From an uncultured cyanobacterium (GTDB taxonomy: Bacteria > Cyanobacteriota > Cyanobacteriia > Phormidesmidales > Phormidesmidaceae), in the NCBI GenBank assembly GCA_963793265.1, contig CAWBZI010000001.1, positions 1,760,001 to 1,824,000 on the forward strand: a stretch of 64,000 bases of DNA, read 5' to 3'. The translations under genes and the position numbers were made by a program. The notes under the pieces were generated by a model. It saw only the letters and a list, made by a program, of their open reading frames with translations. It ran no database searches and was not told the origin of the DNA. Shown in pieces: positions 12,410-62,100 of this stretch (its first letter is position 1; each line of letters begins with the position of its first letter).

Positions 12410-14062
12410 GTGGACAAACCCGTCATTCTAACCGTTGATGACGATCCGGCGGTGCTTCAGTCAATCGCTCGCGACTTGCGGAAGCAATACGGCAGCCAGT
12501 TTCGTATTGTGCGAGCCGACTCTGGAGCTAGCGCCCTCGATGCCACTCAAAAGCTCAAGCTACGCGGCGATAGCATAGCTCTATTCCTAGTCGATCAGCG
12601 AATGCCAGAGATGAGCGGCGTGGAATTTTTAGAGCAGGCGAGCAAAATTTTTCCGATGGCTAAGCGATCGCTCCTCACCGCCTACGCCGACACCAACGCC
12701 GCAATTGACTCTATCAACAGCGCCCATCTCGACTACTACCTGCTCAAGCCCTGGGATCCGCCAGAAGAGAAGCTGTATCCTGTTTTAGATGATTTGATCC
12801 AGGACTGGCAGGCGAGCTTTAAGCCTGAGTTTAAGGGTGTAAAGGTGATTAGCGATCGCTGGAGCCCTAATTCTCACGACCTGCGCGACTTCTTATCCCG
12901 CAACCAAATCCCCTACCGCTGGCTCGATATTGAAACCAGCGAAGAAGCCAAAAAGCTCGCAGCCTACGCAGGCGAAGGCGAAAATCCTAATATTCCGCTG
13001 GTCATTACCGGGGACGGCACAAAGCTGATCAAGCCAACGGTCACTGACCTAGCTCAAAGCGTCGGGCTCCAAACCGAAGCTGCCAAGCCCTTTTATGATT
13101 TGATCATCGTCGGCGGTGGCCCCGGTGGCCTAGCCGCTGCTGTGTATGGCGCGTCTGAGGGTTTGCGCACGGTGATGATTGAGCGTGAGGCCCCTGGCGG
13201 ACAGGCCGGTACCAGCTCACGAATTGAGAACTACTTGGGCTTTCCTGTGGGCCTTAGCGGCGGCGACTTAGCCCGCCGGGCGGTTACTCAGGCCAAGCGC
13301 TTTGGCGTCGAAATTCTTTCGCCTCAGTCGGCCTCATCCCTTCGCACTGAAGACGACTATCACTTTCTTACGCTTGCAGATGGCAGCGAAATTAGCTCTC
13401 ATGCTTTAATTTTGGCTTTAGGCGTTTCTTGGCGGCGGCTGAACGTGCCGGGCGTGGCAGACTTTACGGGCGCAGGCGTTTACTATGGAGCCGCGCAAAC
13501 TGAGGCGCTCGCCTGCGAAGGCGAAGAGGTGTATGTGGTCGGCGGCGCGAATTCTGCGGGTCAGGCAGCGATGTATTTTTCTAAGTTTGCGCGGAAGGTT
13601 CGCATGTTGGTGAGAGGCGAGTCTTTGGTGAAGAGTATGTCGCAGTATTTAATCGAGCAGATTGATGAAACTGACAATATTGAGGTGATGCCGTTTCATA
13701 GCGTGATTGAGGCGAAGGGCGATAAGCGATTGGAAATGCTGCGAGTAAAAGATTCTAAGACGGGTGAGATTAAAGAGTTTAAGACAAATTCTTTGTTTAT
13801 CTTCATTGGTGCAACGCCGAGTACTGAATGGCTAGACGGTTTGGTTGAAAAAGATAATAGAGGATTTATTTGTACGGGGCCGGATGTGAGTGAGGAGCTG
13901 CCCTGGCCTTTGGAGCGCGATCGCTTCTTACTCGAAACCAGCGTTCCCGGCATTTTCTCAGTCGGTGACGTACGCCATGGTTCAGTCAAGCGAGTGGCTT
14001 CTAGCGTAGGGGAAGGCTCTATTTGTGTACAGTTTGTGCACCGACATCTGGCGAACGTTTAA
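12410..14062 (+). CDS. Receiver domain fused to thioredoxin-reductase-like flavoprotein
   Basis: REC (LTVDDD, VDQRMP, KPW); FAD motif GGGPGG, IENYLGFP, NADPH motif GGANSAGQ, GDVRHGS. Confidence 0.92.
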   Translation: MDKPVILTVDDDPAVLQSIARDLRKQYGSQFRIVRADSGASALDATQKLKLRGDSIALFLVDQRMPEMSGVEFLEQASKIFPMAKRSLLTAYADTNAAIDSINSAHLDYYLLKPWDPPEEKLYPVLDDLIQDWQASFKPEFKGVKVISDRWSPNSHDLRDFLSRNQIPYRWLDIETSEEAKKLAAYAGEGENPNIPLVITGDGTKLIKPTVTDLAQSVGLQTEAAKPFYDLIIVGGGPGGLAAAVYGASEGLRTVMIEREAPGGQAGTSSRIENYLGFPVGLSGGDLARRAVTQAKRFGVEILSPQSASSLRTEDDYHFLTLADGSEISSHALILALGVSWRRLNVPGVADFTGAGVYYGAAQTEALACEGEEVYVVGGANSAGQAAMYFSKFARKVRMLVRGESLVKSMSQYLIEQIDETDNIEVMPFHSVIEAKGDKRLEMLRVKDSKTGEIKEFKTNSLFIFIGATPSTEWLDGLVEKDNRGFICTGPDVSEELPWPLERDRFLLETSVPGIFSVGDVRHGSVKRVASSVGEGSICVQFVHRHLANV

Positions 14063-14077
14063 TACAAAGGAGGCTTC

Positions 14078-14281
14078 TTGCAAGACTACTATCTCGCTCA
14101 GATCAACGTGGCACGGATGAAAGCGCCTTTGGCCAATCAGTTTCCAAGCGCCGCAGAAAGCAGAGAAAGAATAGAACACCTGACGCTGCATGGAGAATCT
14201 TCTAAATGTTTCACCTTTGGCAAGCTTTACCCTGCACCGAAAATTAGCTATGTTGCATCTGTAGGCGAAGTTGAGGAATGA
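14078..14281 (+). pseudogene. DUF3291-family gene remnant with internal deletion
   Basis: N-terminal LAQINVARMKAPL joined directly to C-terminal ERIEHLTLHGESSKCFTF; centre missing. Confidence 0.65.
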
Positions 14282-14322
14282 TAGAAAAAGATAGGCTTTT
14301 TGTTCTATATAGGGGTCGTTGA

Positions 14323-18046: not shown

Positions 18047-18873
18047 ATGAACACAGCCGAACAGCTCGCACAAATCGACCGCCTAAAAGCCTGGTTAGAC
18101 AGCTTTCGCCCTCTACCAGCGGACGTGCTGTTAGAACTAAAGCAGCGTTATGACGTTCGGCTCACCTACACGTCTAATGCGATTGAGGGCAATACGCTCA
18201 CGCAAAGCGAGACTGAACTGGTTTTGGCTAAGGGTATTACGGTGGGTGGTAAAACGCTGGCTGAACACTTAGAAGTGATTGGCCATAAAGAGGCGATTGA
18301 CTATATCGAGACGCTGAGTAAGGCAGAGACGCTATTGGCGAATGGGAGATTCGACAGATCCATAGTCTTATTGTTAGAAAGATTGCACCGATTGAGGCAG
18401 GGCGATATCGACAGCTAGACGTGAAGGCTGCGGGCTCGAATCATGTTTATCCGCCTCATTACCTGCTGCCAGAGCTGATGAGTGAGTTTGTTGAGTGGCT
18501 GAGAGCTTTGCACTTAGAGCAGCATCCGGTTGCATATGCTAGCGAGGCGCACTATCGCTTTGTTGCGATTCATCCTTTTGCAGATGGCAACGGTCGCACC
18601 GGGCGGTTACTGATGAATTTGTTGCTGTTGAGAGCGGGCTTTCCGATTGCGATTATCTCGAATGAGCAGCGGCAGGCGTATATTGAAGCGTTGATGGAAG
18701 GGCAGCGATCGCCCCAAAATCTAACCTCACTTCTTACCCTAATCTGCGCAGCCACACGCGAATCACTGATCGAAACGCTCTCTATCTTAGCGAGTGCTGG
18801 CAGTAGCAAAGGTAAGGGAAAGCCCTTTTATCAGGAAGTTGTTGCCTTTTTATCAACGGTGGATAGTGAGTAG
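18047..18873 (+). pseudogene. Fic-family protein, frameshifted near 18331
   Basis: SNAIEGNTLT in first frame; IGEWEIRQIH...AGRYR and HPFADGNGRTGR in second frame. Confidence 0.87.
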
Positions 18874-19578: not shown

Positions 19579-19730
19579 ATAACAAACACTTTAAGGTTAC
19601 TTGCAAACGTTCAAGCAAAACTTATGAGTGGAAGAATGTTAGCTGCTAACGCATTTCTGTTTATAGCAAACGCTTTAAGGTTGCTTGTAAGTGCTTAAGG
19701 GGATCTTATGAGTGGGGGAGGCGTTGGTGC
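19579..19730. repeat. Degenerate tandem duplication, period ~84 bp
   Basis: ataacaaacactttaaggttacttgcaa...cttatgagtgg at 19579 vs atagcaaacgctttaaggttgcttgtaa...cttatgagtgg at 19663. Confidence 0.75.
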
Positions 19731-19748
19731 GATCGCTTACTACTCAAC

Positions 19749-21571: not shown

Positions 21572-21573
21572 TC

Positions 21574-23139: not shown

Positions 23140-24467
23140 TTGCAGATTGGCTCGGCCCGGCGATGTTCGCAGGCGCGTTGGCACTACTCTCACTCGGCTA
23201 CCCGGTCGCGTTCTCTTTAGGCGGCGTGTCAATTCTCTTTGGCATTATTGGCATCGCGATGGGCGTTTTCGATCCGATTTTTCTCACGGCCATGCCACAG
23301 AGAATTTTCGGCATTATGAACAACTTTACGCTGCTGGCGATTCCCTACTTTATTTTTATGGGCGCAATGCTAGAGAAATCTGGGATTGCAGAAGATTTAC
23401 TCGAAACCATGGGCAGCTTGTTTGGTCGCATTCGCGGCGGGCTCGCGGTGGCTGTTGTTGTGGTGGGTGCACTGCTGGCGGCGACGACAGGGGTTGTGGC
23501 GGCGACGGTAGTGACCATGGGACTGATTTCGCTGCCGACGATGCTGCGCTATGGATACAACAAAGATTTAGCGAGTGGGGTGATTGCCGCTTCGGGGACG
23601 CTAGGGCAGATTATTCCGCCGAGTATTGTGCTGGTGGTGCTGGCCGATCAGCTAGGAATTTCTGTTGGAGATTTGTTTTTGGGCTCGGTAATTCCGGGAC
23701 TGATGATGGCAGGGGCTTTTGTGGTGCATGTGCTTGCGATCGCCTTCTTCCGCCCCGATCTAGCCCCCGCACTCCCCGCCGAACTCATCGACATCCGAGG
23801 CAAAACTCTTTTCCTCAAAGTCATTCAAGTAATGCTGCCGCCCTTAGCCCTGATCTTGCTAGTGCTTGGCAGCATTTTCTTTGGGGTAGCCACACCAACT
23901 GAGGCCGGTGCACTTGGGTGTTTTGGCGCGATGGTATTAGCGGCGATTAAAGGTCAGCTCAGGCTTGAAGGATTGCGGGATGTGTGCGATCGCACCCTCC
24001 GCACCACCAGCATGGTTATCTTCATCCTGCTTGGCTCTACCGCCTTCAGCCTAGTGTTTAGAGGGCTCAGAGGCGACAGATTCATCTTTAACGCCCTCAC
24101 AAATCTTCCCGGTGGTGAAATCGGCTTCCTGCTCGTCAGCATGATCACCATCTTCATCCTTGGCTTCTTCATCGACTTCTTCGAGATTGCCTTTATCGTC
24201 GTGCCGCTCTTCGCCCCCATCGCTCAGCAGATCGGCATCGACCTGGTTTGGTACGGCGTCATCATCGGCGCGAATATGCAAACCTCATTTCTCACGCCAC
24301 CGTTTGGCTTTGCCTTGTTCTACCTACGCGGCGTAGCCCCCAAAGAAATTACCACTGGCAACATCTATCGCGGCGTCATTCCTTTCATCGCACTGCAGCT
24401 ACTCGTACTGGTCGCGATCATCGCCTTCCCACCTTTGGTAAGCTGGCTTCCTTCAATCAGTCAGTAG
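23136..24467 (+). CDS. dctM: TRAP transporter large permease
   Basis: LLAIPYFIFMG, GTLGQIIPPS, ATPTEAGA, LTPPFG. Confidence 0.95.
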   Translation: MIADWLGPAMFAGALALLSLGYPVAFSLGGVSILFGIIGIAMGVFDPIFLTAMPQRIFGIMNNFTLLAIPYFIFMGAMLEKSGIAEDLLETMGSLFGRIRGGLAVAVVVVGALLAATTGVVAATVVTMGLISLPTMLRYGYNKDLASGVIAASGTLGQIIPPSIVLVVLADQLGISVGDLFLGSVIPGLMMAGAFVVHVLAIAFFRPDLAPALPAELIDIRGKTLFLKVIQVMLPPLALILLVLGSIFFGVATPTEAGALGCFGAMVLAAIKGQLRLEGLRDVCDRTLRTTSMVIFILLGSTAFSLVFRGLRGDRFIFNALTNLPGGEIGFLLVSMITIFILGFFIDFFEIAFIVVPLFAPIAQQIGIDLVWYGVIIGANMQTSFLTPPFGFALFYLRGVAPKEITTGNIYRGVIPFIALQLLVLVAIIAFPPLVSWLPSISQ

Positions 24468-24474: not shown

Positions 24475-25203
24475 CTACCAAATCAACCGCAGGCCAATCA
24501 CGCCTAGTAGCGAAAGCACAATTCGCTTAAAGCTATCGGCATCAATCTTTTTAGAAAGCACAATGCCTAAGCCCATCCCAATTGCAAACATTGGCGTTGT
24601 GTACAGCGCAATTTCCCAAAGCTCAGGTGTGAGATGCCCTTCAAAAAAGTGACCAGTCAGCGCAAATGTGAGCGCCACGACATACACACCAGGCAAGTTT
24701 CCTTTAAATTCTTCTGGGCTCCATTGCTTAGAGTTCGCGTACATCACCAGCGGCGGGCCGCCCGCTGTAAAAGCGCCGGTCAGAAAGCCAGATATTCCAC
24801 CGAATAAGTAGGCCCACCTGGGAGAGGTGAGCGCTGGCATTGTGAAGGCAGGGGAGATCAGGCGCAGAATGTCGTAGGCCACGTACAGCACGATAAAGCT
24901 GCCGAGTATTTTTAGCGAAATATCTTCGGGGATGTAGTGCAGGCCGACTAGACCAATTGGAATGGAGACGAGCGCTGAGAGGACGAGGGGTAGGGTTGCT
25001 TTTAAGCTGAAATTATCGCGGTAGTAAATCCATAGCCCGATGCTGCTGAGCAGGCACATCATTAGCACTAGAGGGATTGCAAGGGAGAGATCTAAGAAGA
25101 AGGGGAGGATTGCGATCGCAACCAGCGCAAATCCAAACCCCGCCAAACTCTGCACCGCCGCTGCCAGGCCGATAATCCCAGCGATCCATATGATATTTTC
25201 CAA
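24475..25203 (-). CDS. TauE/SafE-family membrane protein
   Basis: LAGFGFAL and GFLTGAFTAGGPP repeats, ~8 TM segments. Confidence 0.85.
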   Translation of the reverse strand: MENIIWIAGIIGLAAAVQSLAGFGFALVAIAILPFFLDLSLAIPLVLMMCLLSSIGLWIYYRDNFSLKATLPLVLSALVSIPIGLVGLHYIPEDISLKILGSFIVLYVAYDILRLISPAFTMPALTSPRWAYLFGGISGFLTGAFTAGGPPLVMYANSKQWSPEEFKGNLPGVYVVALTFALTGHFFEGHLTPELWEIALYTTPMFAIGMGLGIVLSKKIDADSFKRIVLSLLGVIGLRLIW

Positions 25204-30540: not shown

Positions 30541-30927
30541 ATGCGTAGCTGGCAAGGTTTTTTGAGAAAAGGCGTAGGCGCTTGTTTGGTGTGGATAGTT
30601 GCGATCGCGCTCATCATCCAACCTGTCCTAGCCGATCCCCTGATCGAACCTGCCCCCACAGAACCAGTCATCACAGAACCCACTGGCGCAGCGCTCTTTA
30701 GCGCCAACTGCGCGGCCTGTCATGCGGGCGGTGGCAATATTATTCGGCGGGGCAAGAACCTGAAGCAGCGGGCGATGAAGCGCAATGGGTTTGGAGAAGT
30801 GGGTGCGATCGCTTCAATTGTGACTAAAGGAAAAGGCGCGATGCCTGCGTTTGCTGACAGGTTAACCGGAGATGAGATTGAGGCGATTGCGCAGTACGTC
30901 CATGAGCAATCAGAGGCAGGCTGGTGA
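30541..30927 (+). CDS. petJ: Cytochrome c6-like protein (c6B/c6C type)
   Basis: Signal peptide, CAACH, GGNIIRRGKNLK, GKGAMPAF; start uncertain. Confidence 0.85.
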   Translation: MRSWQGFLRKGVGACLVWIVAIALIIQPVLADPLIEPAPTEPVITEPTGAALFSANCAACHAGGGNIIRRGKNLKQRAMKRNGFGEVGAIASIVTKGKGAMPAFADRLTGDEIEAIAQYVHEQSEAGW

Positions 30928-39772: not shown

Positions 39773-40987
39773 ATGAAGATTCTAATGCTGGCACCGCATC
39801 CTTTCTATCAGCCACGAGGCACGCCGATCGCAGCTAACTTAGTGTTAAGAGTACTTTCTGAGCGCGGCGAACAGGTCGATATGGTGACCTTTCCTGAAGG
39901 CAGCGACGTTGACTATCCAGGCGTCACCATTCACCGTACGCCCGCGCTCAAAATCGTCGAAAACATCCGCCCCGGCTTTTCAGTTAAGAAAATTATCTGC
40001 GACGTGTTTCTGCTAGCGCGCGCCTTCCAACTCGCCAAGCGCAACCAGTACGACCTCATCCATGCCGGGGAAGAGGCAGTTTTCATTGCGCTCTTGCTCA
40101 AAAAGCTGCTGGGCATTCCCTATGTCTACGACATGGACTCTTCGCTCGTTCAGCAGCTTATGGACAAGCATCCGCGCGTTCGCTGGGTGAAAAAGCTGCT
40201 TCAGGCTTGCGAAGGTGTTGCAGTTAGAAACGCGAATGCAGTGCTAGCCGTATGTGAAGCGCTCAGAACTGAAATTCAGCCCTATCGGCCTAGAAAAGTT
40301 GACATCATTCCTGATATTTCACTACTCAACGATACGAGTGCGAGCCTTCAGAATGATACAGAGCACCTGAAGTCTCAGTTTCAGATTGAAGGCGTGATGC
40401 TGATGTATGTTGGCAACTTGGAGCGCTATCAGGGTATAGACTTACTGCTGGCTAGTTTTGCAAAAGCTTTGAAGTCTAAGCCGGACGCGCATTTAGTGGC
40501 GATTGGTGGCAATGCGGATGATGTTCAAAAGTATCAGGCGCAGGCGCAGGCTTTGGGGGTGAGCGATCGCATCCATTTCATCGGCCCCCGCCCCATTGCC
40601 AAGCTCAAGCACTACCTCGCTCAGGCCGACATTGTTGTATCGCCACGAACCCAGGGCAACAACACGCCAATGAAGCTCTATTCCTACTTGGACAGCGGCA
40701 AAGCGTTACTGGCTACCGACCTCACTACGCATACTCAAGTGTTGAACGACCGAATCGCGCTATTAGCGAAGCCAGAAGTTGACGCGTTTGCAAAAGGAAT
40801 TGAGCACTTAATTGAGCATCCTGAACTTCGCGCCAGATTAGGCAAAGCGGCTCAGGCATACATTGCGAAGTCTCATACTTACGAAGCCTTTTCGCTTAAG
40901 CTTGCCTCGCTTTACGACTGGGTGAAAAAGGAGCTGCCAGTTAAGGAAGTTGTGCCTGCTAAAGTACCTGCGACGATAGCGCATTAG
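39773..40987 (+). CDS. GT4 glycosyltransferase
   Basis: YVGNLERYQG, TPMKLYSYL, GT-B layout. Confidence 0.9.
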   Translation: MKILMLAPHPFYQPRGTPIAANLVLRVLSERGEQVDMVTFPEGSDVDYPGVTIHRTPALKIVENIRPGFSVKKIICDVFLLARAFQLAKRNQYDLIHAGEEAVFIALLLKKLLGIPYVYDMDSSLVQQLMDKHPRVRWVKKLLQACEGVAVRNANAVLAVCEALRTEIQPYRPRKVDIIPDISLLNDTSASLQNDTEHLKSQFQIEGVMLMYVGNLERYQGIDLLLASFAKALKSKPDAHLVAIGGNADDVQKYQAQAQALGVSDRIHFIGPRPIAKLKHYLAQADIVVSPRTQGNNTPMKLYSYLDSGKALLATDLTTHTQVLNDRIALLAKPEVDAFAKGIEHLIEHPELRARLGKAAQAYIAKSHTYEAFSLKLASLYDWVKKELPVKEVVPAKVPATIAH

Positions 40988-41049: not shown

Positions 41050-42795
41050 GTGCATCGAGACTTAGCCGCTCTATCCAACCAATCTTTCGACGTGCTCGTC
41101 ATCGGCGGCGGCATCCACGGCGCTTGCGCAGCCTACGAAGCAGCCCTCAGAGGACTCTCAGTCACCCTCGTAGAACAGTCAGATTTTGCCTCTGGCACTT
41201 CGGCTAATAGCCTCAAGGTCATTCACGGTGGACTGCGCTATCTACAGACTGCTGACTTCAGGCGAATGCGCCAGTCGATTAAAGAGCGTCAGACGCTGAT
41301 GCGAATTGCGCCGCATCTGGTGCATCCGATGCCGGTATTGGTGCCGACCTATGGTCATGGCATTAAAGGTAAGGAGGCGATGACGGTGGCGCTGAAAATG
41401 AATGATGTGATTAGTGGCGATCGCAACTTCCCACTCAAAGATCCCCAAAAGCACATTCCCCCCGGCAGGCTCCTCTCCAAAGCTGCCTGCCTCGAACAGC
41501 TACCTGACCTTCCTACCGATGGACTCACTGGAGCCGCCCAGTTTTACGATGCTCAAGTTTATAACTCGGAGCAGCTTGTGCTGGCGTTTGTGCAGTCGGC
41601 AGCGCAGTATGGGGCGCAGGTTGCGAACTACCTTCGGGTTGTAGGGATAGCGCGAAAGGGCGATCGCGTTACCGGGGCGGTAGTGCAAGATCAGCTTGGC
41701 GGCGATCGCTTCACCATCCAAGCCAAAACCATCCTCAACGCCAGCGGCCCCTGGATTGATCAGCTCGTCTCTATCACCAAAGAGGCCACCGGAAAGGCTA
41801 ACACCGAAGCAGCGACAGCTAAAGCCGCGCCCAAACTAGCCAAGGCGATGAACTTAGTCACGCGGCCCCTGTTTGGCCCACAGCAAAAAAACGCAGTGGG
41901 CATCACTGGCAGAGCCTCGGGTAGCCGTCTATTCTTCGTCGCACCCTGGCGCGGTAAATCTTTAGTCGGCACGTGGTACGGCCCCAATAACGAAGCCATC
42001 TATCCACCAGCAGCCACGACCGCTGAAGTCACCGATTTTCTCACCGACATCAATCAGGCTTACCCCACTTTTAACCTCACCCCTGATGATGTGGAATGGG
42101 TACACTGCGGCCTCCTTCCGAGCGATGGCGTTTCTGCTAAAACAGGCGATATGAAGCTCACCAAAAGCTTTCAGCTCAAAGACCATCGACGTGATGGCTT
42201 AAAAGGTCTGCTTTCGATTAAAGGCGTTAAATACACCACCGCTAGAGACTTAGCGCGAAAGGCAGTGGACTGGGTGTTTCTCGATCAGCAGCGTAGCGCA
42301 CCGCCGTCTTACTCCCACAAAGAGAGATTGTGTGGGGGTGATATTCAGGCGTTTGATCGGTTTATGGCGATCGCAACCAAAACCCACGCCAACAAAATCT
42401 CACCCGAAACCATTAAGCGGCTAGTTCACAACTACGGCTCTGAGTATTCAAAAGTCTTACAGGAGATCGATTCACCGCTGACTGATAGCGCTGAGTCAGA
42501 CAAACAAATCCTCGCCGCTGAGGTGAGATATAGCCTCAGAAACACGATGCCTCAAACGTTAGCAGATGTGGTTTTCAGGCGTACTGAACTAGGCGCTACC
42601 GGACATCCTGGAAATGAGGCTTTGCAGCTTTGTAGTCAAATCATGAGCGAAGCTTTGGGTTGGAGCCCTGATAGACAGGCGGCTGAGATGAAGCAAGTTC
42701 TAGAAAAATTTGGCACTTGGCAAAGAAAAGAGGGCTCCAGTCAACCGTCTTTACCCAGAACGTCTGCCGAGCGATCGCTGCGGTGTGCGGTGTAA
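41050..42795 (+). CDS. Glycerol-3-phosphate dehydrogenase/oxidase-like FAD oxidoreductase
   Basis: IGGGIHG, GTSANSLKVIHGGLRYL, NASGPW, KYTTAR, DVVFRRT. Confidence 0.88.
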   Translation: MHRDLAALSNQSFDVLVIGGGIHGACAAYEAALRGLSVTLVEQSDFASGTSANSLKVIHGGLRYLQTADFRRMRQSIKERQTLMRIAPHLVHPMPVLVPTYGHGIKGKEAMTVALKMNDVISGDRNFPLKDPQKHIPPGRLLSKAACLEQLPDLPTDGLTGAAQFYDAQVYNSEQLVLAFVQSAAQYGAQVANYLRVVGIARKGDRVTGAVVQDQLGGDRFTIQAKTILNASGPWIDQLVSITKEATGKANTEAATAKAAPKLAKAMNLVTRPLFGPQQKNAVGITGRASGSRLFFVAPWRGKSLVGTWYGPNNEAIYPPAATTAEVTDFLTDINQAYPTFNLTPDDVEWVHCGLLPSDGVSAKTGDMKLTKSFQLKDHRRDGLKGLLSIKGVKYTTARDLARKAVDWVFLDQQRSAPPSYSHKERLCGGDIQAFDRFMAIATKTHANKISPETIKRLVHNYGSEYSKVLQEIDSPLTDSAESDKQILAAEVRYSLRNTMPQTLADVVFRRTELGATGHPGNEALQLCSQIMSEALGWSPDRQAAEMKQVLEKFGTWQRKEGSSQPSLPRTSAERSLRCAV

Positions 42796-43468: not shown

Positions 43469-44284
43469 ATGACTTCGCAACCCGATCAAACGCATCTAGC
43501 CCAAACCCACCTATTAGTAGACGCCCACGTTCACCTGCACGACTGTTTTGATTTAGCGCAGTTCTTAAACGCAGCCCTAACTAATTTTCAAAGGCAAAGC
43601 CAGCAGCTCAAGCTAGCGCCCCCAATCATAGGCGCGCTCCTCCTGGCAGAAGTCAGCGGCGTTAATGCTTTTGCGGAGTTAAAGGCAAACTTGCAGAGTC
43701 TTAATAGCCAGATGTCGGACTGGGAAATTTGCGCCACTGAAGAGGACTGCTCGCTTTGGGTTAAGCACAGCGACGGGCACGCCATGTTGATTGCCGCTGG
43801 TCGGCAGGCGGTAACTCAAGAAGGGATTGAAGTGTTGGCTTTGATGACGGCGGCTGTGGTTCGCGATCGCCTAACCCTATCAGACACCCTAGAGCAAGTG
43901 ATCGCAGCAGGCGGACTACCCGTGCTGCCCTGGGGTGTGGGCAAATGGATTGGCAAACGCGGCGGGCTCGTAAAGCAGCAGCTAGAGACGGCGAATGCGC
44001 CTTTATTTGCTGGTGATAACGGCGGCAGACCAGGCTTTTGGCCTCTGCCCGACTACTTTCAACAGCGCCTGCAGCTACCGGGCACCGATCCCCTACCGCT
44101 GCCTTATGAAGTCAGCCGCGCGGGCAGCTATGGCTTTTTGACTCGGGGCGATATTGACTGGGCTCATCCTTGCAAAAGTCTCAAGCAGATTTTGCTGGCC
44201 GAGAAACCTACTATTCAGGCTTACGGGCGATCGCTCTCTCCCCTAAAATTCATCCAAAGCCAAACCCTCATCCGCCTAAAGTAA
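43469..44284 (+). CDS. Hypothetical PHP-like protein
   Basis: DAHVHLH, VLPWGVGKW, GTDPLP. Confidence 0.7.
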   Translation: MTSQPDQTHLAQTHLLVDAHVHLHDCFDLAQFLNAALTNFQRQSQQLKLAPPIIGALLLAEVSGVNAFAELKANLQSLNSQMSDWEICATEEDCSLWVKHSDGHAMLIAAGRQAVTQEGIEVLALMTAAVVRDRLTLSDTLEQVIAAGGLPVLPWGVGKWIGKRGGLVKQQLETANAPLFAGDNGGRPGFWPLPDYFQQRLQLPGTDPLPLPYEVSRAGSYGFLTRGDIDWAHPCKSLKQILLAEKPTIQAYGRSLSPLKFIQSQTLIRLK

Positions 44285-44324: not shown

Positions 44325-45062
44325 ATGATCTCCACCCATCCCTTTCCTGAAACTGCCGATATTGAAACGTCTTCAGCCGACTACGCGACCCGGTTCTCAG
44401 GCCCCACGGGTCGGTGGCTATTAGACGTGCAGGCGCAGGCAACGCTGGCGATGCTGAAAGATTATCCGCAGGCCAAAATTTTAGAAGTTGGCGGTGGACA
44501 CGGGCAGCTAACTTCGCACTTAATCGAAGCAGGGCATTCAGTTACTGTGATTGGGAGCGATGAAAGCTGCGAAGAACAGATTCGGCCTTTGGTGGAAGCT
44601 AGGCAGTGCAAGTTTCAGGTCGGTAACGTGCTGGCAATGCCTTATGCCGATAGTGCTTTTGATGTGGTGATTAGCTATCGGTTTTTAGCGCATGTTGAGC
44701 AGTGGCAGGCGTTTATGAGTGAACTCGCGCGGGTGGCGAGCAAAGCTGTGATTGTTGACTATCCAACGTTGCGCAGCGTCAACTACATTACGCCGCTGTT
44801 GTTTTCACTCAAAAAAGGCGTGGAGGGCAATACGCGGCCCTATACCTGCTACGACGAGTCTGAGCTGATGGGCTATGCGAAAAGTGTGGGATTGGAGACG
44901 GGCGATCGCTATCCCCAATTCTTTTGGCCCATGGTCGTTCACCGAATGCTCAAAAAGCCCAAAGTATCAGCACCTTTAGAAAGCAGCGCAAGAGCATTAG
45001 GACTCTCTAAACTTTTTGGCTCACCCGTCATTACTAAATTCGTCAAAGCAGGAGGCAACTAA
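44325..45062 (+). CDS. Class I SAM-dependent methyltransferase
   Basis: ILEVGGGHG, MPYADSAFDVV, ELARVA. Confidence 0.88.
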   Translation: MISTHPFPETADIETSSADYATRFSGPTGRWLLDVQAQATLAMLKDYPQAKILEVGGGHGQLTSHLIEAGHSVTVIGSDESCEEQIRPLVEARQCKFQVGNVLAMPYADSAFDVVISYRFLAHVEQWQAFMSELARVASKAVIVDYPTLRSVNYITPLLFSLKKGVEGNTRPYTCYDESELMGYAKSVGLETGDRYPQFFWPMVVHRMLKKPKVSAPLESSARALGLSKLFGSPVITKFVKAGGN

Positions 45063-45063: not shown

Positions 45064-46098
45064 ATGGCTGATTCAACCGTAGCGAATACGCAACTGCCGC
45101 CAAATTCGCGCGCTCTAGTCACAGGTGCCACTGGCTTTACCGGATCTGTTCTGGTTCGTAAGCTGGTTGAGCAAGGGGTGGAAGTGGTTGCGATCGCCCG
45201 CCCTACCTCAAACATCCAACAGTTCGACGGACTGCCGATTGAATGGGTAAAAGGCGACGTATTCGACAAAGCCCTAATCGACAACGCCATGCAAAACGTC
45301 ACCCACATTTTCCATATGGTGACCCCCTTCCGCGAAGCCAAATCACCCGATGAAGGCTACTACAACGTGCATGTCCTCAGCACCCAGCACCTTGCAAAAG
45401 CCGCACTCACTCAGCCCAACTTTCAAAGATTCGTCCACGTATCCACCATCGGCGTTCACGGCCACATCGCCAATCCGCCCGCTGATGAAACCTATCGCAC
45501 CGAGCCAGGAGACGTTTATCAGCAGTCTAAGCTAGAAGGCGAAGAGTGGATTAAAGCCTTTGGCAAAGAAAGCGGCCTGCCGGTAACTGTTATCCGACCG
45601 GCTGGTATTTATGGCCCCGGTGAAAAGCGACTGCTCAAAATCTACAAAATGGTCAGCAAAGGCTGGGTGCCTGCCATTGGCAACGGCGGCAATCTTCTGC
45701 ACTTCATTCACGTTGACGATCTCACCGACTGTTTGCTAGTGAGTGCCAACCATCCTAAAGCAGTGGGCGAGACGTTTATTTGTGGTAGCAAAGAGGCGAT
45801 CGCCTTCAAAGATATGGTCGCCCTCATCAGCGAACAATACAACGTCTCCGCCAGATTCATCTCACTCCCCGGCCCGCCCCTATTCGCCATAGCCGACCTC
45901 TGCGAAGCCATCTTCCGCCCCCTCGGTATCGAGCCTCCCATCTATCGCAGACGGCTCGCCTTCTACACCAAAGACCGCTCCTTCGACACCTCAAAAATCA
46001 GAAACCTCCTGGGCTTCACCCCCCACCACTCAGACCAAGAAGGACTCAAAGAACTCGGCCAGTGGTACTTAGATCAGCAGTGGGTTTCTCTGTCATAA
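45064..46098 (+). CDS. NAD-dependent epimerase/dehydratase
   Basis: VTGATGFTG, YQQSK, IYGPG, FIHVDDL. Confidence 0.92.
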   Translation: MADSTVANTQLPPNSRALVTGATGFTGSVLVRKLVEQGVEVVAIARPTSNIQQFDGLPIEWVKGDVFDKALIDNAMQNVTHIFHMVTPFREAKSPDEGYYNVHVLSTQHLAKAALTQPNFQRFVHVSTIGVHGHIANPPADETYRTEPGDVYQQSKLEGEEWIKAFGKESGLPVTVIRPAGIYGPGEKRLLKIYKMVSKGWVPAIGNGGNLLHFIHVDDLTDCLLVSANHPKAVGETFICGSKEAIAFKDMVALISEQYNVSARFISLPGPPLFAIADLCEAIFRPLGIEPPIYRRRLAFYTKDRSFDTSKIRNLLGFTPHHSDQEGLKELGQWYLDQQWVSLS

Positions 46099-49049: not shown

Positions 49050-49539
49050 TCCAAACCAAGTTACTGCGGCTAAGGCTTTAGCGTCTTTTGTTATTCTCAC
49101 CGTTATTTCGATTCAGTCGTACGCAGCCATACTTCACCGAGTCTGTAGTCGCCCGATACCGCTGTTCTGCGCCCTCCCAAAAGAGCCGGGGCTATATCCC
49201 TTTCTCGACTATCCCATGTACAAAACAGCGCACTTAGAAGGGGAATCTATTGATAACTATGCTCTAATTGGCGTCTTTGCAGACAACACTCAAAAACAGC
49301 TAGCACCCTCAGATTTTGGGCTGTCGCTCTATCAGTTCAATCGAGGGCTAGTCGAAGCTGTCAAAACCGATAATCTATCTAAAATACGAGACTACACCAG
49401 CGCTTACAACCAAATAAGCGAGCCGCCGTTTGTACAGCTACAGCTTGAAAATCGTCCCTTAGTAATTACGGCAGACGGGGTGAAAGAAGGCGTTAAAGCA
49501 GAAGTTAACCGAACTCCGGCGGCTTCCCCGGCTAAATAG
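49030..49539 (+). CDS. Membrane-anchored hypothetical protein
   Basis: N-terminal TM, YPFLDYPMY motif; in operon. Confidence 0.7.
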   Translation: MATLKSSPNQVTAAKALASFVILTVISIQSYAAILHRVCSRPIPLFCALPKEPGLYPFLDYPMYKTAHLEGESIDNYALIGVFADNTQKQLAPSDFGLSLYQFNRGLVEAVKTDNLSKIRDYTSAYNQISEPPFVQLQLENRPLVITADGVKEGVKAEVNRTPAASPAK

Positions 49540-49593
49540 GTCAGTTAACACAATAATCGAACAATCCGTTCAACCATAAAGAAGCGCTAAGCA

Positions 49594-50865
49594 ATGACCG
49601 CCAGCAAAAAACAATTCATACCTCTAAATATATGGAACAACTATTGGTTTCATCCTGCGCCTTCGTTCAATCTGGCAATATGCCGCATTATTATCATCGG
49701 GGTTCAACTGGGCTATCTTCTCGTTGAGGATTATGCGCCCAATGTGATGTCGCAAACAGCGATACCAGGACGCACCTATAGTCCGCTGCCGGTTTTCCAA
49801 CTGCTCAATGCACCTTTTCCTTGGCATGCACCCCCTTCTGCTTTTCTGATAGCGGTTCTCTTAGCGACCTTTGTCTCTGGCGCGTTGTCAGTAGTTGGCT
49901 TCAAGACCAACTTTAATCTGTTGGTATTCGCGCTCGGCAACGTATATATCCAGACCTATCTCTATTCATTCGGATCGTTTCACCATCCCGAAGCGATTAT
50001 GCTAATTGCGCTCTTCATTTTGGCTCTGAGCCCAGCAGGAAAGGCAATTTCAATAGATGATTTTAGCGATCGCCTCAAAAGAAACCTCTACACTCAAAGC
50101 GTTCAACCCACCCACACCCTTCAAGCAAATAGCCTCCTCAGCCGATGGCCTCTACTCCTAATCCAGTGGCTATTCGCCATCACCTACTTTTCCGCCGCTC
50201 TCAACAAGCTCTCCGTAGACGGCCCTGGCCTAGCCTTCAGCGCCAACTGGATGAATGGATACACCCTGCAGTACTACCTCCTCACCGACGGGCTGCTGTG
50301 GAATAGCAGCTTTGGCGTTTGGCTAGGCCACCAGCACCAGCTAGCCATCGTCTCCTCGTGGGTAGCCATCCTCTTTGAAAGCACCATATTCCTCACCCTC
50401 ATTTTCCCCAAGCTCGTTTGGATATACGTTCCCACTGGCATCGCCTTCCATCTCGGTATCTACTTCGCTCAGCGCGCTCCCTTCTTTCAATACCTGCCGC
50501 TCTACGCGGTCTTTATTCCCTGGAGCGCCGTTGCCAAAGCGATCGCTCATCGACTAAAACGGTCGTATCAGCACCATCCGAAGCCTGAACTTATCTACGA
50601 TAGTTCGCGCGCAGGCTGCATTCGCGCGGCGACGTTGCTACGCTATTTTGATTGGAGTGATCGCCTCGCCTACAGCCCGCAGCAAAGCCTCGAACCGCCT
50701 CGACAAAATACGCCGCGCGATGAAAGTAAACTGTCCCTCGCGCAGCCAAACGGCACCCAAATCCAGGGCAATCTGGCATTCCGCAAGGCAATTCGCTACA
50801 TTCCACCGCTCTGGCCGCTGCTACCGCTGACGTATCTACCCACAAACCACCAAGTCGCCCTCTAG
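49594..50865 (+). CDS. HTTM-like integral membrane protein with DCC-like C-terminal domain
   Basis: WNNYWF..NLAICR, SPAGKAISID, YFSAALNKL, WMNG, FHLGI; tail LIYDSSRAGC...DWSDRL. Confidence 0.72.
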   Translation: MTASKKQFIPLNIWNNYWFHPAPSFNLAICRIIIIGVQLGYLLVEDYAPNVMSQTAIPGRTYSPLPVFQLLNAPFPWHAPPSAFLIAVLLATFVSGALSVVGFKTNFNLLVFALGNVYIQTYLYSFGSFHHPEAIMLIALFILALSPAGKAISIDDFSDRLKRNLYTQSVQPTHTLQANSLLSRWPLLLIQWLFAITYFSAALNKLSVDGPGLAFSANWMNGYTLQYYLLTDGLLWNSSFGVWLGHQHQLAIVSSWVAILFESTIFLTLIFPKLVWIYVPTGIAFHLGIYFAQRAPFFQYLPLYAVFIPWSAVAKAIAHRLKRSYQHHPKPELIYDSSRAGCIRAATLLRYFDWSDRLAYSPQQSLEPPRQNTPRDESKLSLAQPNGTQIQGNLAFRKAIRYIPPLWPLLPLTYLPTNHQVAL

Positions 50866-55500: not shown

Positions 55501-56398
55501 CGACCCCAACATCAACTTCGATTGGGGCGCAGGTTCGCCTGATTCTAGAGTTGGCGGCAACGGCTTCTCGGCTCGCTGGACTGGTCTTATCGAAGCTCAA
55601 TACTCCGAAACCTACACCTTCTACACCAGCATCGACGATGGCGTTCAGCTCTGGGTCAACGGACAGCTTCTGGTTGACCACCTCGTTTCGCCGTCTAGGG
55701 GCGAGTTCAGCGGCAGCATTGATCTAGTCGCTGGCCAAAAGTACGACATCCGCATGGAGTACTTTGAAGATGGTGGCGATGCCTTAGCTCAGCTCTCATG
55801 GTCTAGCGCCTCGCAGGCTAAGCAAATTGTGCCGCAGTCACAGCTCTTTAGCAGTGGCACCGCGAGCGCACCTAGCGGTGCCAGCACAGCGCCCCCAGTG
55901 TCAGCACCGCCAACAGCACCGCCAGCATCCGCTAGCAGCAACACGCCTCGCTCAACCAGTGGGACAACGGCCAGTAACGGCAACGGTCTGCTCGCTCAGT
56001 ACTTCGATAACTACGACTACACCAACCTCAAGGTGACACGTACCGATGCCAACATCAACTTCGACTGGGGTGCGGGCTCTCCCGACTCTAGAGTCGGCGG
56101 CAACGGCTTCTCGGCTCGCTGGACGGGGTTAGTTGAAGCCCAATACTCCGAAACTTACACCTTCTACACCAGCATTGACGACGGCGTTCAGCTCTGGGTC
56201 AACGGACAGCTTCTCGTTGATCACCTCGTTTCGCCGTCTAGGGGCGAGTTCAGCGGCAGCATTGATCTAGTCGCTGGCCAAAAGTACGACATCCGCATGG
56301 AGTACTTTGAAGACGGCGGCGATGCCTTAGCTCAGCTCTCATGGTCTAGCGCCTCGCAGGCTAAGCAAATCGTGCCGCAGTCACAGTTGTTTTCTTAG
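52532..56398 (+). CDS. DUF4347 + SGNH/GDSL hydrolase + five PA14 domains
   Basis: HLVSHG...YGCDVA...GADVAAS...GDWDLE; IMPLGDSIT, HEGHGG, IGTND, DGLHPN; five copies of FSARWTG...DDG..LWVNG. Confidence 0.92.
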   Translation: MFNTPNTDSSLNAGFASTSGFSETGDTSLLLVPSASPTNPSPVGSSGRQLTFIDARVDDYQQLADNIIAGDVFLLDSARDGVEQITETLAQYDDITGLHLVSHGSDGLLQLGNSILNSGSIGQYEQSLKSWDDALASEADIMVYGCDVAAGDTGTHFVKELGRLTGADVAASTDLTGSANQQGDWDLEFATGSIETDLVFSGAIASSYEGVLATYNEVSTLRIMPLGDSITRTGNAGFDGYRRDLWKKLVANGYNKLDFVGGGDFTGPNNDYDVNHEGHGGWRADQIADNAVRYAQDHNPDVVLLHIGTNDANQGQSVQSTLDDIGRIIDRLRSVNPNVAVLLAKIIPSSSNRNATEASAVAALSGQIYKVAQSKNQSGSPVILVDQYSGFNPDADTYDGLHPNNSGQAKMADRWYSALAGLFSSGHQYNRPGSDNGGGSGGNNPTPGGNGNGLKAEYYNNIDFTNLALTRTDSTVNFNWGKGSPNSNIGSDTFSARWTGQVEPRYSENYTFYTTSDDGIRLWVNGQLVIDRFYDQAPTEHRGNITLTAGQKYDIRMEYYEKGGGAAAKLSWSSASQSKEIIPESQLFSSTTTNPPTGGGNGGTTNPPTGGGTSTGGGDGLTAQYFDNYDYTNLKVTRIDPNINFDWGAGSPDSRVGGNGFSARWTGLIEAQYSETYTFYTSIDDGVQLWVNGQLLVDHLVSPSRGEFSGSIDLVAGQKYDIRMEYFEDGGDALAQLSWSSASQAKQIVPQSYLFSSSSAVPTPPTSGGGGTTNPPTSGGNGGNPTPSGNGNGLKAEYYNNMDFTDLALTRTDSTVNFNWGKGSPNSNIGSDTFSARWTGQVEPRYSEIYTFHTTSDDGIRLWVNGQLIIDRFYDQAPTEHTGTIMLAAGQKYDIRMDYYEKGGGAAAKLGWSSASQRKEIIPESQLFSASSGTTTPPTGGGSGGTTNPPTGGGTNPSTGGNTPTASNGDGLTAQYFDNYDYTNLKVTRIDPNINFDWGAGSPDSRVGGNGFSARWTGLIEAQYSETYTFYTSIDDGVQLWVNGQLLVDHLVSPSRGEFSGSIDLVAGQKYDIRMEYFEDGGDALAQLSWSSASQAKQIVPQSQLFSSGTASAPSGASTAPPVSAPPTAPPASASSNTPRSTSGTTASNGNGLLAQYFDNYDYTNLKVTRTDANINFDWGAGSPDSRVGGNGFSARWTGLVEAQYSETYTFYTSIDDGVQLWVNGQLLVDHLVSPSRGEFSGSIDLVAGQKYDIRMEYFEDGGDALAQLSWSSASQAKQIVPQSQLFS
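53888..56395 (+). repeat. Five ~410-bp PA14 coding repeats in order A-B-A-B-B
   Basis: A copies start 53888 and 54908; B copies start 54389, 55442, 55985; Gly/Thr/Pro linkers. Confidence 0.92.
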
Positions 56399-57484: not shown

Positions 57485-59190
57485 ATGTTGCAGACAAGTT
57501 TTAACGATGACGAAAAGTTGCCTCTATCAGCAGCTAAAGCAAGAGAGCATCAGTATAGAAAAGCAAACAAACGCTACATTTTATTCACCGTAATACTCTC
57601 GCTCGCTGTGATCGCGGCACATACATTTCGACTGGCAGAAGTACCGGCTGGGCTGTATATGGATGAGTCGTCTATTGGGCTCAATGCGGCCTTAATTGCG
57701 CAGCAGGGCGTAGATGAATATGGAGATCGCTTTCCTACGTACTTCAAAGCGTTTGGCGAGTATAAAAACCCTACCTATATCTATGCCAGTGCGCTTCTTT
57801 TTAAGCTTTTTGGTATCTCGGTTTTCAATTTAAGACTCACGAGCTGTCTCTTCTTTCTAACGGGTTTATTTTTCACGCTGCTGCTCACATCTAAGCTGTT
57901 TTCAAAAAACAGAATCATTCAGCTATACACGCTGCTTTCCCTCGGGTTCTTACCGGTTTTTTTCGTACTCTCAAGAGTATCCTTTGAAGCGATTTCTCAG
58001 CTTACGTGGGTAGCTGCAATCAATCTATCAGTATGGTTGACTTTTTATGAGAAGGGCAAAGAAGGCACCCTTGATAGTGATCGCAGCGATCGAACACCCA
58101 TAGAAACAACTACCTCAAAGCCACCGCTTGCGGGCTTTTGCTGGGCACATCTATCTACACATATTCCACGGCTCGGCTGCTATCAGGTCTGATGCTGATT
58201 TCGCTGTGGGCTATCTACTTCGACCGAAACAATCTTAAAAAGCTAGGTTTAATCACCGCAGCATTCACTGTCTCCTTAGGTCCCTATCTCTATTTCGTTC
58301 GCTTTCACCGAGGGGCCACCACGGGAAGATTCAAGATCATTTCATATATTGACGATCCGATATCTACGCCTCGAAAGATCCTTATATTCATCCAAAACTT
58401 CTTTGAATACTGGTCGCCAGATTTTTTGCTGTTCAGCGGCGATGCTAATCTACGGCATTCGATTGGCTATGGCGGGATTATCTTTGGGACAACGCTGCTT
58501 TTGTTCTTAGTCGCGATCGCCTACTTCATCCTCCACAAAAGAACCACAGGCCCATCCACCCTCACCCGCTTCACCCTTTTCCTCATCCTCAATTTACTCG
58601 CCTCTCCAGTCGCCGCCTCGCTCACCTCAGAAAGCGTCCCCCACTCTCTACGAAGCCTGCTACTGGGCTACTACATTCTGCTAATTTCCTGCTACGGGCT
58701 CGCCTTCCTGCTAAAGATCAAAGACCATCGCCTCAAAAAAGGACTCCTGATAGGTCTTTCTAGCTTACTGATCTTTGAGGTTATCGCTTCTCAGATTTAC
58801 TATTTCGGAGCCTATCCTGCAAACAGCGTAGCGGCGATGGAAAGCTTTGACTTTCAAACTTCATTACAAACCGCGATCGCCCAAGATCCAGACGAAATCA
58901 TCTTCGTTAACCAGCCCACCGCCGCCTACGCCAATCTAGAGTTCTACGAATTCTTGGTAGACAACCCTCAAAATATCCCAATAACAGCAACGCCCGGCCC
59001 TGAGCTAACCGCTGACAACACCTGCATTTTGTATCCCACCGAAATTGAACCCACCCTTAATGCAAGCCTAGACGCCCCGTTCAAAACGTTCGAGCACACG
59101 AAGCCACTGACAGCCATAGAGAGAACAGTGCGAGGCATGGAGCCAGTCAAGTCTTTTATTAAAGTTAGATGCTATGAGAAGTCTGCCTAG
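57485..59190 (+). pseudogene. GT-C fold (ArnT/PMT-like) glycosyltransferase, frameshifted near 58092
   Basis: PAGLYMDE, GVDEYG, GEYKNP in first frame; TYSTAR, FSGDANLRH in second frame. Confidence 0.8.
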
Positions 59191-60612: not shown

Positions 60613-61017
60613 GGAGACACCCTTTATTTATAGAGATACTGCATCTATGGAGACACTTCGGTGCGATCACGCGCAGCATCCACACCTATCCTCTCAGCAC
60701 GTGGTCTTACGTAAATATGGCTCATCAAGCCGTAAAAAGTAGGGAATTGCCGCAAAGAGAGTAACAGATCGAATAAAGAGTCAATAAAGTTATCTGGAAA
60801 CTAAGCGGAATTACGAGTATCTACCACTACTATCAGAAGCACAGTAAGCTTTCCGAGCAAACCTCTTGGTTGCCCCTACTTGGTTGCCCCCAAGCCCCGC
60901 TACTGAACACCATTTCAATAGCAGCTCAGGCAGCTTGTTTTGCTAGTCACATCCCCCCTGTTTGGCGCACATAATCTACTAAAGCAATCCCCTAATAAAA
61001 CTGTAGGAATCTAGATC

Positions 61018-62100
61018 GTGGCATCTTCCTTATTTGATTCACAGCTCTCCAGCTCGCAGCTCTCTGACGCCTATAAGCAGCGCCAGGCGCTATCGATAGA
61101 CCCCAGACAAAACCCGCCTGAGCATCCCGAAAATACAGCACCCGAAAGCCTGAAACCGCAAAGCATTTCGCTTTCGATCGTCGTGCCTATCTATAACGAG
61201 GTCGAAACACTTCCCCACCTCATAGAGCAAATCGAAAGAGGCGTTTCTACCTACCCCGAGCCCTACGAAATCATCTGTATAGACGATGGCTCCCAAGACG
61301 GCTCTACCGAACTCCTCAAGCAGTTAGCACGCCGCTATAAGCACTTACGAGCCGTAATTTTGCGTCGCAACTACGGCCAAACAGCAGCGATGGCCGCTGG
61401 CTTTGAGGCAGCTCAAGGTCAGGTCATTGTCACCATGGACGGCGACTTGCAAAACGACCCGCAAGATATTCTGTCCTTAGTTTCCAAACTTAATGAAGGC
61501 TACGATCTCGTAAGTGGCTGGCGCAGAAACCGCCAGGACGCGGCTCTCACCCGGCTGCTACCTTCCAAAATCGCCAACATCATTATCGGCAAGGTGACGG
61601 GGGTCAATATTCGCGACTATGGCTGTTCGCTCAAGGCCTATCGCGCCGACCTTGTTGCCGATCTCAAGCTCTACGGAGAGCTACACCGCTTTCTCCCGGC
61701 ACTTGCCTTTATAGAAGGGGCTCGAGTGACCGAAGTACCCGTGCGTCATCACGCCCGGCAGCATGGTCAAAGCAAATACGGATTAGGCAGAACCTTCCGA
61801 GTCGTGATGGACTTGCTCACCATCACCTTCATCAAAACGTTTCTAACTCGGCCCATGCACGTGTTTGGATCTCTCGGCATGATGTCTTTGGGTACAGGCT
61901 CTGTGCTGGGCATTTATCTGGTTTTTGTAAAGGTATTTCTCGGACAGGGAATTGGCGATCGCCCCCTCCTCCTTCTAGCTGTCGTCCTCGTCTTAGCAGG
62001 CGTCCAGCTATTCTGTTTTGGCCTCCTTGCAGAGCTACTAATGCGCACCTACCACGAGTCTCAAAACAAGCCTATCTACCGCGTTAGAGAGCGCGTATAG
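61018..62100 (+). CDS. GT2 polyprenol-phosphate glycosyltransferase (ArnC/GtrB-like)
   Basis: VVPIYNE, DDGSQD, RNYGQTAA, MDGDLQNDP, DYGCSLKAYR, two C-terminal TM. Confidence 0.92.
   Translation: MASSLFDSQLSSSQLSDAYKQRQALSIDPRQNPPEHPENTAPESLKPQSISLSIVVPIYNEVETLPHLIEQIERGVSTYPEPYEIICIDDGSQDGSTELLKQLARRYKHLRAVILRRNYGQTAAMAAGFEAAQGQVIVTMDGDLQNDPQDILSLVSKLNEGYDLVSGWRRNRQDAALTRLLPSKIANIIIGKVTGVNIRDYGCSLKAYRADLVADLKLYGELHRFLPALAFIEGARVTEVPVRHHARQHGQSKYGLGRTFRVVMDLLTITFIKTFLTRPMHVFGSLGMMSLGTGSVLGIYLVFVKVFLGQGIGDRPLLLLAVVLVLAGVQLFCFGLLAELLMRTYHESQNKPIYRVRERV

Follow-up and report, generated by a model that had tools for sequence, protein, structure and literature searches.

What acts at HIP1, the palindromic octamer GCGATCGC, such that one strand of the surrounding DNA is rich in G on one side of it and rich in C on the other? 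To our knowledge, HIP1 has been known for about thirty years without an accepted function. The question is raised by a 64,000-nucleotide stretch (hereafter the window) from an uncultured cyanobacterium of the family Phormidesmidaceae (GenBank assembly GCA_963793265.1, contig CAWBZI010000001.1, positions 1,760,001–1,824,000; G000:C1:1760001-1824000 in our numbering), whose genome, G000, comprises 5.68 Mb in 7 contigs with 50.7 per cent G+C. A first-pass annotation of the window, made from its letters alone, had reported that the + strand turns from G-rich to C-rich at HIP1 sites, even mid-gene and for both gene orientations, and had proposed that a strand-asymmetric process anchored at HIP1 leaves a mutational footprint. 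We quantified the flip at every exact copy of HIP1 as D, the G − C count of the left 60 nucleotides (nt) minus the G − C count of the right 60 nt on the + strand. The window contains 78 copies of HIP1 (1.83 are expected from shuffles), and D is positive at 70 of them, negative at 7, and tied at 1, with a mean of 14.1. Recounting G and C at the three sites for which the annotation gave numbers (18705, 23736, and 25112) returned identical values, and the flip was found at all 11 sites that it had called similar by eye.

The flip extends to the whole genome, in which HIP1 occurs 6,888 times (the reversed control word occurs 307 times). Across these sites the mean D is 10.1 (standard error [se] 0.11) and 84.9 per cent of values are positive; at 29,904 random positions D is 0.01, with 46.5 per cent positive. 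The distribution of D has one shifted mode, and all seven contigs (7/7) behave alike. Two checks that the annotation had suggested gave clear outcomes: the sign does change at HIP1 in the all-site average, and control octamers are flat. None of 82 other palindromic octamers (at least 40 copies each, located at least 200 nt from HIP1) shows a flip, their D ranging from −3.0 to +1.9. A blind scan for positions with D of at least 36 returned 79 G-to-C flips, 60 of which have a HIP1 within 12 nt, and 5 C-to-G flips, none of them at HIP1; with D of at least 32, there were 223 G-to-C flips (163 at HIP1) versus 33 opposite ones (0 at HIP1). Among all 6-mers with at least 100 copies, the top anchors were CGATCG, GATCGC, and GCGATC, and sub-words of HIP1 were the sole strong anchors; away from HIP1, the top 6-mers were GTGATC and GATCAC.

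The sequence requirement is strict. Only two of the 24 one-mismatch variants, GTGATCGC and GCGATCAC, have near-full skew (+4.0/−4.5 and +3.5/−4.0, compared to +4.9/−5.2 for HIP1 itself). These two are the C-to-T products at HIP1 position 2 and the commonest one-mismatch forms (351 and 415 copies), an excess that fits decay of 5-methylcytosine at this position. Three more variants (GAGATCGC, GCAATCGC, and GCGATTGC) are skewed more weakly, and those that keep CGATCG intact and lose an outer G or C have almost no skew. The 82 flat octamers and the mostly flat one-mismatch variants rule out a general trait of palindromes or of partial HIP1 sequences.

Genome-wide, the skew is mirrored on the two strands around HIP1. 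It amounts to +0.32/−0.32 over the first 10 nt, ±0.18–0.19 at 10–20 nt, about ±0.11 at 45–60 nt, and about ±0.03–0.05 at 120–150 nt, with G+C content unaltered and with a weaker skew of T over A that has the same sign as that of G over C. In isolated flanks (no other HIP1 within 2 kb; 553 + 552 flanks), the skew at third codon positions decays from 0.59 at 1–6 nt to 0.30 at 61–90 nt, 0.18 at 151–250 nt, 0.12 at 300–500 nt, and 0.05 at 800–1000 nt, and a double-exponential fit to the decay gives lengths of approximately 60 nt and 1 kb. Near-site skew also depends on the gap to the next HIP1, rising from 0.24 for gaps of 40–100 nt to 0.49 for gaps above 1 kb. This dependence approximates an additive superposition of opposite flanks (a sawtooth), with the observed values slightly above those predicted, and it does not discriminate between models. 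Replication-associated GC skew resembles the pattern in that G exceeds C and T exceeds A on one strand, with a sign change at a defined point, but it switches only twice per chromosome and extends over megabases, compared with 6,888 switches over 0.06–1 kb here. Moreover, every HIP1 site has a sign change of the ‘terminus’ type, whereas replication skew changes sign at origin and terminus. With thousands of HIP1 sites at which the sign switches and a decay within 1 kb, replication skew is ruled out.

We examined codon positions on a map of 4,275 long open reading frames (ORFs) made for this analysis. Within 15 nt of HIP1, the third-position frequencies of G and C are 0.426 and 0.112 on the 5′ side of the coding strand and 0.152 and 0.413 on the 3′ side (background, 0.274 and 0.268). 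These values are equal for genes on either strand, as the annotation's remark about mid-gene flips in both orientations would have it, and positions 1 and 2 shift little; the effect thus lies at silent positions and not in amino-acid composition, the confounder that the annotation had named. At fourfold degenerate sites within 30 nt, the composition is G.438, C.147, T.237, and A.177 on the 5′ side and G.148, C.438, T.222, and A.192 on the 3′ side. Twofold sites over the same distance carry T in place of C and G in place of A on the 5′ side: pyrimidine-ending sites have C.30/T.70 on the 5′ side and C.615/T.385 on the 3′ side, and purine-ending sites have G.66/A.34 and G.38/A.62, respectively. 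The base rule on the 5′ side is therefore that G is favored, C is shunned, and T and A are intermediate, with the reverse on the 3′ side, which is neither a plain keto/amino pattern nor a plain transition pattern.

Initially the skew seemed to stop at gene starts, but this was an artifact of the map, in which ORF starts are over-extended by up to approximately 30 codons. When the count is restricted to third positions 90 nt or more into an ORF, flanks that enter a gene at its start have skews of 0.168, 0.090, 0.081, and 0.062 in four distance bins and match both the flanks that enter at gene ends and the intragenic ones. Because start-entering, end-entering, and intragenic flanks agree, the process acts on DNA independently of transcription units: the asymmetry works at the DNA level, whatever the gene strand, across gene starts and ends. 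Noncoding flanks are skewed as well (0.30 at 1–10 nt, 0.12 at 11–30 nt, and 0.086 at 31–60 nt), and the skew is also present around HIP1 sites located in spacers.

The flanks do not pair with each other. In register, the left flank of a site is no more complementary to the right one than expected from flanks of different sites (0.2543 versus 0.2553), and complementarity at flank positions 1–3 is below expectation (at position 1, 0.193 versus 0.267, that is, 19.3 per cent complementary versus 26.7 per cent expected from composition). The bases beside HIP1 therefore avoid lengthening the palindrome, and perfect extensions of at least 2 nt occur at about half the expected frequency. Predicted folding brings no gain either, with −12.80 kcal/mol for real sites, −12.78 for chimeras, and −12.97 for swapped arms (se 0.18; 400 sites). 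An extended palindrome or REP-like hairpin is ruled out by the non-complementary flanks together with folding equal to that of chimeras.

To see how far the skew reaches across lineages, we took 20–120 kb per genome in 33 other genomes and approximately 449 kb of the same-genus genome G028. The flip is present in all six (6/6) sampled genomes of the genus (D 6.1–13.8). Outside the genus, D lies more than 2 se above zero in 17 of the 23 genomes with at least 20 HIP1 sites. Within the same family, D is 4.9 in G039, 7.9 in G050, 7.9 in G062, 4.0 in G058, 10.7 in G041, and a marginal 1.6 in G040; in other families, it is 2.5 in G084, 5.5 in G066, 4.1 in G067, 2.9 in G068, 5.3 in G072, 2.9 in G073, 3.5 in G078, 3.2 in G082, 3.4 in G100, 5.3 in G095, and 5.5 in G018. 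No significant skew was found in the remaining six of the 23: G054 (0.8, n = 179), G017 (−0.2, n = 281), G016 (−0.6), G020 (1.2), G079 (−3.1), and G080 (1.4). The skew is widespread and quantitative, strongest in this genus and of intermediate strength across many families, and it is not an automatic result of having HIP1. Four samples had fewer than 20 HIP1 sites, and the sample of G077 had none: G077:C1:1-20000 lacks any HIP1, yet this complete genome carries 8,832 copies in 6.1 Mb, so its first 20 kb may represent an island of foreign DNA or some special region.

Orthologous loci allow the order of events to be addressed. Of the 449 kb of G028 aligned to G000, 308 kb mapped, at 69–84 per cent identity, and we compared 512 gaplessly aligned orthologous sites. 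Where HIP1 is in both genomes (n = 275), D is 11.75 in G000 and 12.45 in G028. Where it is in G028 only (n = 139), D is 4.32 in G000 and 9.73 in G028, and where it is in G000 only (n = 98), D is 9.15 in G000 and 2.33 in G028. The residual D in the genome without HIP1 is 10.2 where GTGATCGC or GCGATCAC stands in its place (n = 30), 7.8 at other one-mismatch forms (n = 19), 3.6 at two mismatches (n = 49), 1.5 at three (n = 84), and 1.2 at four or more (n = 55). In these alignments, the skew comes and goes with HIP1 at a given locus, HIP1 coming first and the skew second, and it lingers at recently decayed GTGATCGC sites.

The same pair of genomes was used to ask whether substitutions are more frequent near HIP1. 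Around the 275 conserved sites, third-position divergence goes from 0.416 at 1–15 nt to 0.457 at 251–400 nt, and divergence at positions 1 and 2 is flat with distance (0.098–0.108). Compared with control anchors, positions 1 and 2 near HIP1 show at most about a 20 per cent relative excess, but these anchors are imperfectly matched, sitting in more conserved genes, and we therefore used only the trend with distance from HIP1. The shares of the six unordered types of difference track base composition. Exchangeabilities, taken as flux divided by the product of the two base frequencies, are 0.72 near versus 0.74 far for C–G, 1.99 versus 2.18 for A–G, and 2.54 versus 2.02 for C–T; the G+C content of third positions (GC3) is 0.574 near versus 0.565 far. 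Added C-to-G mutagenesis that produces a 4:1 ratio of G to C would lift C–G exchangeability approximately 2.4-fold. Fourfold T is nearly unchanged near HIP1 (0.237 versus 0.242), and since T hardly rises, the pattern is unlike C-to-T deamination. In four metagenome contig sets over 20 kb, there were 161 differences, which among the 40 listed were mostly transitions, partly clustered, and not polarized.

Divergence that is not raised and exchangeabilities that are unaltered argue against hypermutation near HIP1 and fit a bias in strand choice or in fixation. The annotation's proposal is thereby divided. A strand-asymmetric process anchored at HIP1 is borne out, as the skew is specific to HIP1, mirrored, at the DNA level, and follows HIP1 at orthologous loci. 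The mutational footprint does not hold up in the sense of extra damage or error-prone synthesis, given the near-site divergence, the C–G exchangeability, and the near constancy of fourfold T. A bias in the choice of the strand that prevails during correction accounts better for the data.

Our tentative reading, to which we give somewhat less than an even chance, is that a strand-polar, nick-directed, one-directional mismatch correction uses HIP1 as its entry point. According to the searched text of Elhai (Life 2015, PMC4390886), HIP1 abundance may be explained by G-mC-directed mismatch repair with a MutH analogue, in which a strand-specific nick at methylated HIP1 is followed by excision and resynthesis. 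Following this idea, each strand would be nicked at or beside a (hemi)methylated HIP1, and the nicked strand would then be excised and resynthesized 5′-to-3′ only. Mismatches 3′ of HIP1 on a strand would be corrected against that strand, and just 5′ of HIP1 the strand's own synthesis errors (or heteroduplex alleles) would tend to survive. Polymerase errors are usually biased toward G·T over A·C mispairs and toward purine·purine over pyrimidine·pyrimidine mispairs, a bias that would enrich the surviving strand in G and deplete it of C. Because only the share between strands shifts, the overall substitution rate would hold approximately constant; such a shift predicts the unaltered rate and exchangeabilities that we observed. 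The amplitude in a lineage would be set by its reliance on HIP1 and on one-directional excision. As to function, it is possible, if doubtful, that HIP1 serves as the strand-entry signal of an undiscovered one-directional system of mismatch correction (or conversion) in cyanobacteria, with the skew as its read-out.

The published repair model shares with this reading the same octamer and, in the searched text, a reach of approximately 1 kb quoted for methyl-directed repair, which is similar to the long tail seen here. It differs in that it was built for the abundance of HIP1 and, in the searched text, does not mention flank composition beyond the adjacent positions; one-directional excision is our addition, and a MutH or Vsr homolog was not found in G000. 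A further parallel is Dam/MutH at GATC in Escherichia coli, where a methylated palindrome likewise serves as the site of strand discrimination and entry; MutS and MutL are present in G000. Mismatch excision in E. coli is, however, bidirectional.

Several observations weigh against mismatch correction at HIP1. The polarity would rest on an assumed polymerase bias, and the steep 60-nt component of the decay is not accounted for by long excision tracts. Flanks of GATC in E. coli, the textbook site of methyl-directed repair, are without skew (D 0.35, se 0.34, n = 434 in 100 kb). The divergence comparison is near saturation (45 per cent differences), and its control anchors are poorly matched. At matched distance, noncoding skew is 3–4 times below that of fourfold sites, on both the promoter and the terminator side. 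If the process were neutral, such a deficit would be expected only with constraint on most spacer positions; the low values may be owed to such constraint and to small genes absent from our gene map. Xu et al. (2018), in the text searched, attribute the maintenance of HIP1 abundance to selection and not to biased repair. A nicking enzyme was not found in G000 among the families sought: MutH (PF02976) has no match, with the E. coli control matching, and Vsr (PF03852) has none, with controls matching in 3 genomes. MutS1 (PF01624) and MutL (PF08676), with one match each in G000, occur in 32/32 genomes each, and the ExoVII large subunit in 28/32, regardless of skew. Altogether, 6 families or proteins were tested across the sampled genomes; none of these candidates correlates with the skew, and none explains its absence from G017, G016, G020, G054, G079, and G080. 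The genus-conserved 474-amino-acid C5-methyltransferase is missing from G062 (D 7.9) but occurs in G016 (D −0.6), and an HNH endonuclease gene next to another C5-methyltransferase is strain-specific, with an orthologue in 0/16 related genomes.

Strand-polar biased gene conversion, which we regard as unlikely, would have HIP1 start recombination between chromosome copies or with transformed DNA, with the polarity of the heteroduplex fixed relative to HIP1 and mismatch correction favoring G on one strand. The signature resembles a fixation bias (additive log-preferences, the same exchangeabilities, and no rise in rate), and the mirror symmetry is as expected from processing at a break or nick. 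The searched text of two sources points the same way: transformation is boosted by HIP1 in homology arms, and a Chi-like role is discussed for the octamer (bioRxiv 10.1101/2024.09.10.611283), and DNA-transfer genes correlate with HIP1 abundance (PMC13756078). However, GC3 is not raised near HIP1, unlike in classical GC-biased conversion, several HIP1-rich lineages have no skew, and the data contain no direct sign of breaks or conversion tracts. Conversion and mismatch correction differ only in the source of the mismatches, and they are indistinguishable with these data. More unlikely still is a break or nick at HIP1 followed by 5′-to-3′ resection, damage at C and A of the single-stranded 3′ tail, and error-prone fill-in. 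Polarity and bases do match, as C and A are depleted and G is enriched on the strand that would form the 3′ tail. Human meiotic break hotspots offer a precedent in the searched text of Hinch et al. (2023, PMC7615360), with mirror asymmetry at a defined site on a kilobase scale; there, the strand that is single-stranded and ends 3′ at the site undergoes C>N and A>N changes, C>G and A>G among them. Those hotspots, however, exhibit hypermutation in de novo and rare variants without a reshaped composition, whereas at HIP1 the composition itself is shifted at thousands of sites and divergence is not detectably up. Resection with damage predicts a higher substitution rate near the site, contrary to the lower near-site divergence (0.416 versus 0.457), the unaltered C–G exchangeability, and the flat positions 1 and 2 (0.098–0.108, with an excess of at most about 20 per cent over an imperfect control); the near absence of a rise in T is contrary to deamination.

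Selection on the flanks themselves, whereby HIP1 would require, or profit from, flanks rich in G on the 5′ side and in C on the 3′ side, for example because of a strand-loading protein or a single-strand structure, would also leave a signature like that of a fixation bias, and HIP1 sites have been argued to be selected (Xu et al. 2018, text searched). We nevertheless hold it to be very improbable: the flanks lack complementarity and gain no folding stability over chimeras, a reach of approximately 1 kb far exceeds a binding site, the skew is weakest in noncoding DNA, where sequence should be freest to adapt, and it is missing in other HIP1-rich lineages. Finally, the skew could be a coding artifact of codon or amino-acid usage around the peptide that HIP1 encodes, or of gene boundaries. 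The reading frames of HIP1 are indeed unequal (2024, 1549, and 926 sites), and the profile has a 3-nt periodicity. This explanation is scarcely credible, being refuted by the silent-site effect with small changes at positions 1 and 2, by the skew of noncoding flanks and of spacer HIP1 sites, and by the flatness of one-mismatch variants that encode similar peptides; the reach of hundreds of nucleotides also speaks against it.

The searched text of Elhai (2015), Xu et al. (2018), Rodriguez-Cruz et al. (2026), and a 2024 preprint on PCC 7002 does not mention flank skew (subscription-only papers and supplements lie outside this search), and the skew at HIP1 is apparently unpublished. The polar footprint at thousands of flanks is direct genomic evidence of strand- and direction-specific action at HIP1, and any mechanism has to account for its polarity, for a reach of about 60 nt and 1 kb, and for the preferred bases. 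The repair model of Elhai, as well as the Chi-like and uptake-sequence proposals, gain testable predictions, and the amplitude, which ranges across lineages from none to very strong, is a quantitative trait that can serve to find the presumed nicking enzyme by phylogenetic profiling. Codon choice in almost every gene of the genus would oscillate with the distance to the nearest HIP1. In this genus, synonymous codon usage and local GC skew are governed chiefly by this distance, which can mislead analyses of codon bias and selection and those based on skew.

The search for candidate genes yielded further observations. HIP1 is typically methylated by enzymes specific for CGATCG and for GATC. G000 has seven C5-methyltransferase loci (PF00145), two of them with internal stops or split. 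The 474-amino-acid orphan enzyme looked promising in a 5-genome profile and failed over 34 genomes, and orthologues of three other C5-methyltransferases of G000 were not found. At G000:C1:1596699-1598459, a gene for a 336-amino-acid C5 cytosine methyltransferase convergently overlaps that for the 256-amino-acid HNH endonuclease mentioned above; as the HNH gene has no orthologue in the 16 related genomes, the two are probably a strain-specific restriction–modification pair. Two more loci look like decaying restriction–modification systems: at G000:C4:86001-101000, a split C5 methyltransferase accompanies a SinI-type restriction enzyme, and at G000:C1:803001-818000, a SmaI-type enzyme, itself truncated, lies next to a methyltransferase interrupted by internal stops. 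In the skew-poor G040, of genus g11, a TGA near the start splits the mismatch-binding domain of MutS (G040:C31:99287-99629; profile positions 1–31 and 25–112 fall on different pieces); in G054, the other genome of g11, the MutS gene is intact.

The HIP1 sites of the window are collected in Table 1.

Table 1. HIP1 sites of the window, with counts of G and C in the 60 nt on either side (+ strand) and the resulting D.
Feature	Position in window	Strand	G:C left	G:C right	D
62 HIP1 sites, centers of the G-rich to C-rich switch on the + strand	12780..62020				D > 0 at 55; D < 0 at 7 (16156, 22092, 28041, 36538, 37884, 42771, 50539)
HIP1 site	12852..12859		19:8	9:25	27
HIP1 site	18705..18712		21:9	7:23	28
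HIP1 site	19729..19736		23:6	8:15	24
HIP1 site	23736..23743		22:9	10:29	32
HIP1 site	23986..23993		23:9	9:25	30
HIP1 site	25112..25119		21:7	10:27	31
HIP1 site	30601..30608		22:6	9:26	33
HIP1 site	40563..40570		24:9	10:27	32
HIP1 site, strongest of the window	41417..41424		22:5	7:26	36
HIP1 site	43863..43870		24:9	14:22	23
HIP1 site	44902..44909		22:10	9:18	21
HIP1 site	45190..45197		22:9	14:18	17
HIP1 site	58513..58520		17:12	4:28	29
HIP1 site	61955..61962		18:9	12:22	19
15 more HIP1 sites, same tendency	325..12671				D > 0 at 14; tie at 7331

Between positions 53138 and 58513, the window has 5.4 kb without HIP1. Most of this stretch is one ORF of 1,288 amino acids (52532–56398) with five PA14 repeats, a DUF4347 domain, and a GDSL lipase domain; the three ORFs that follow it have no Pfam match. 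A metagenome contig (run X2) joins window position 49009 to 50857, leaving out 1,847 nt. The omitted segment includes one ORF that matches the HTTM domain and another, of 175 amino acids, without a family. This difference may be a strain-level insertion or deletion in a glycosyltransferase neighborhood.

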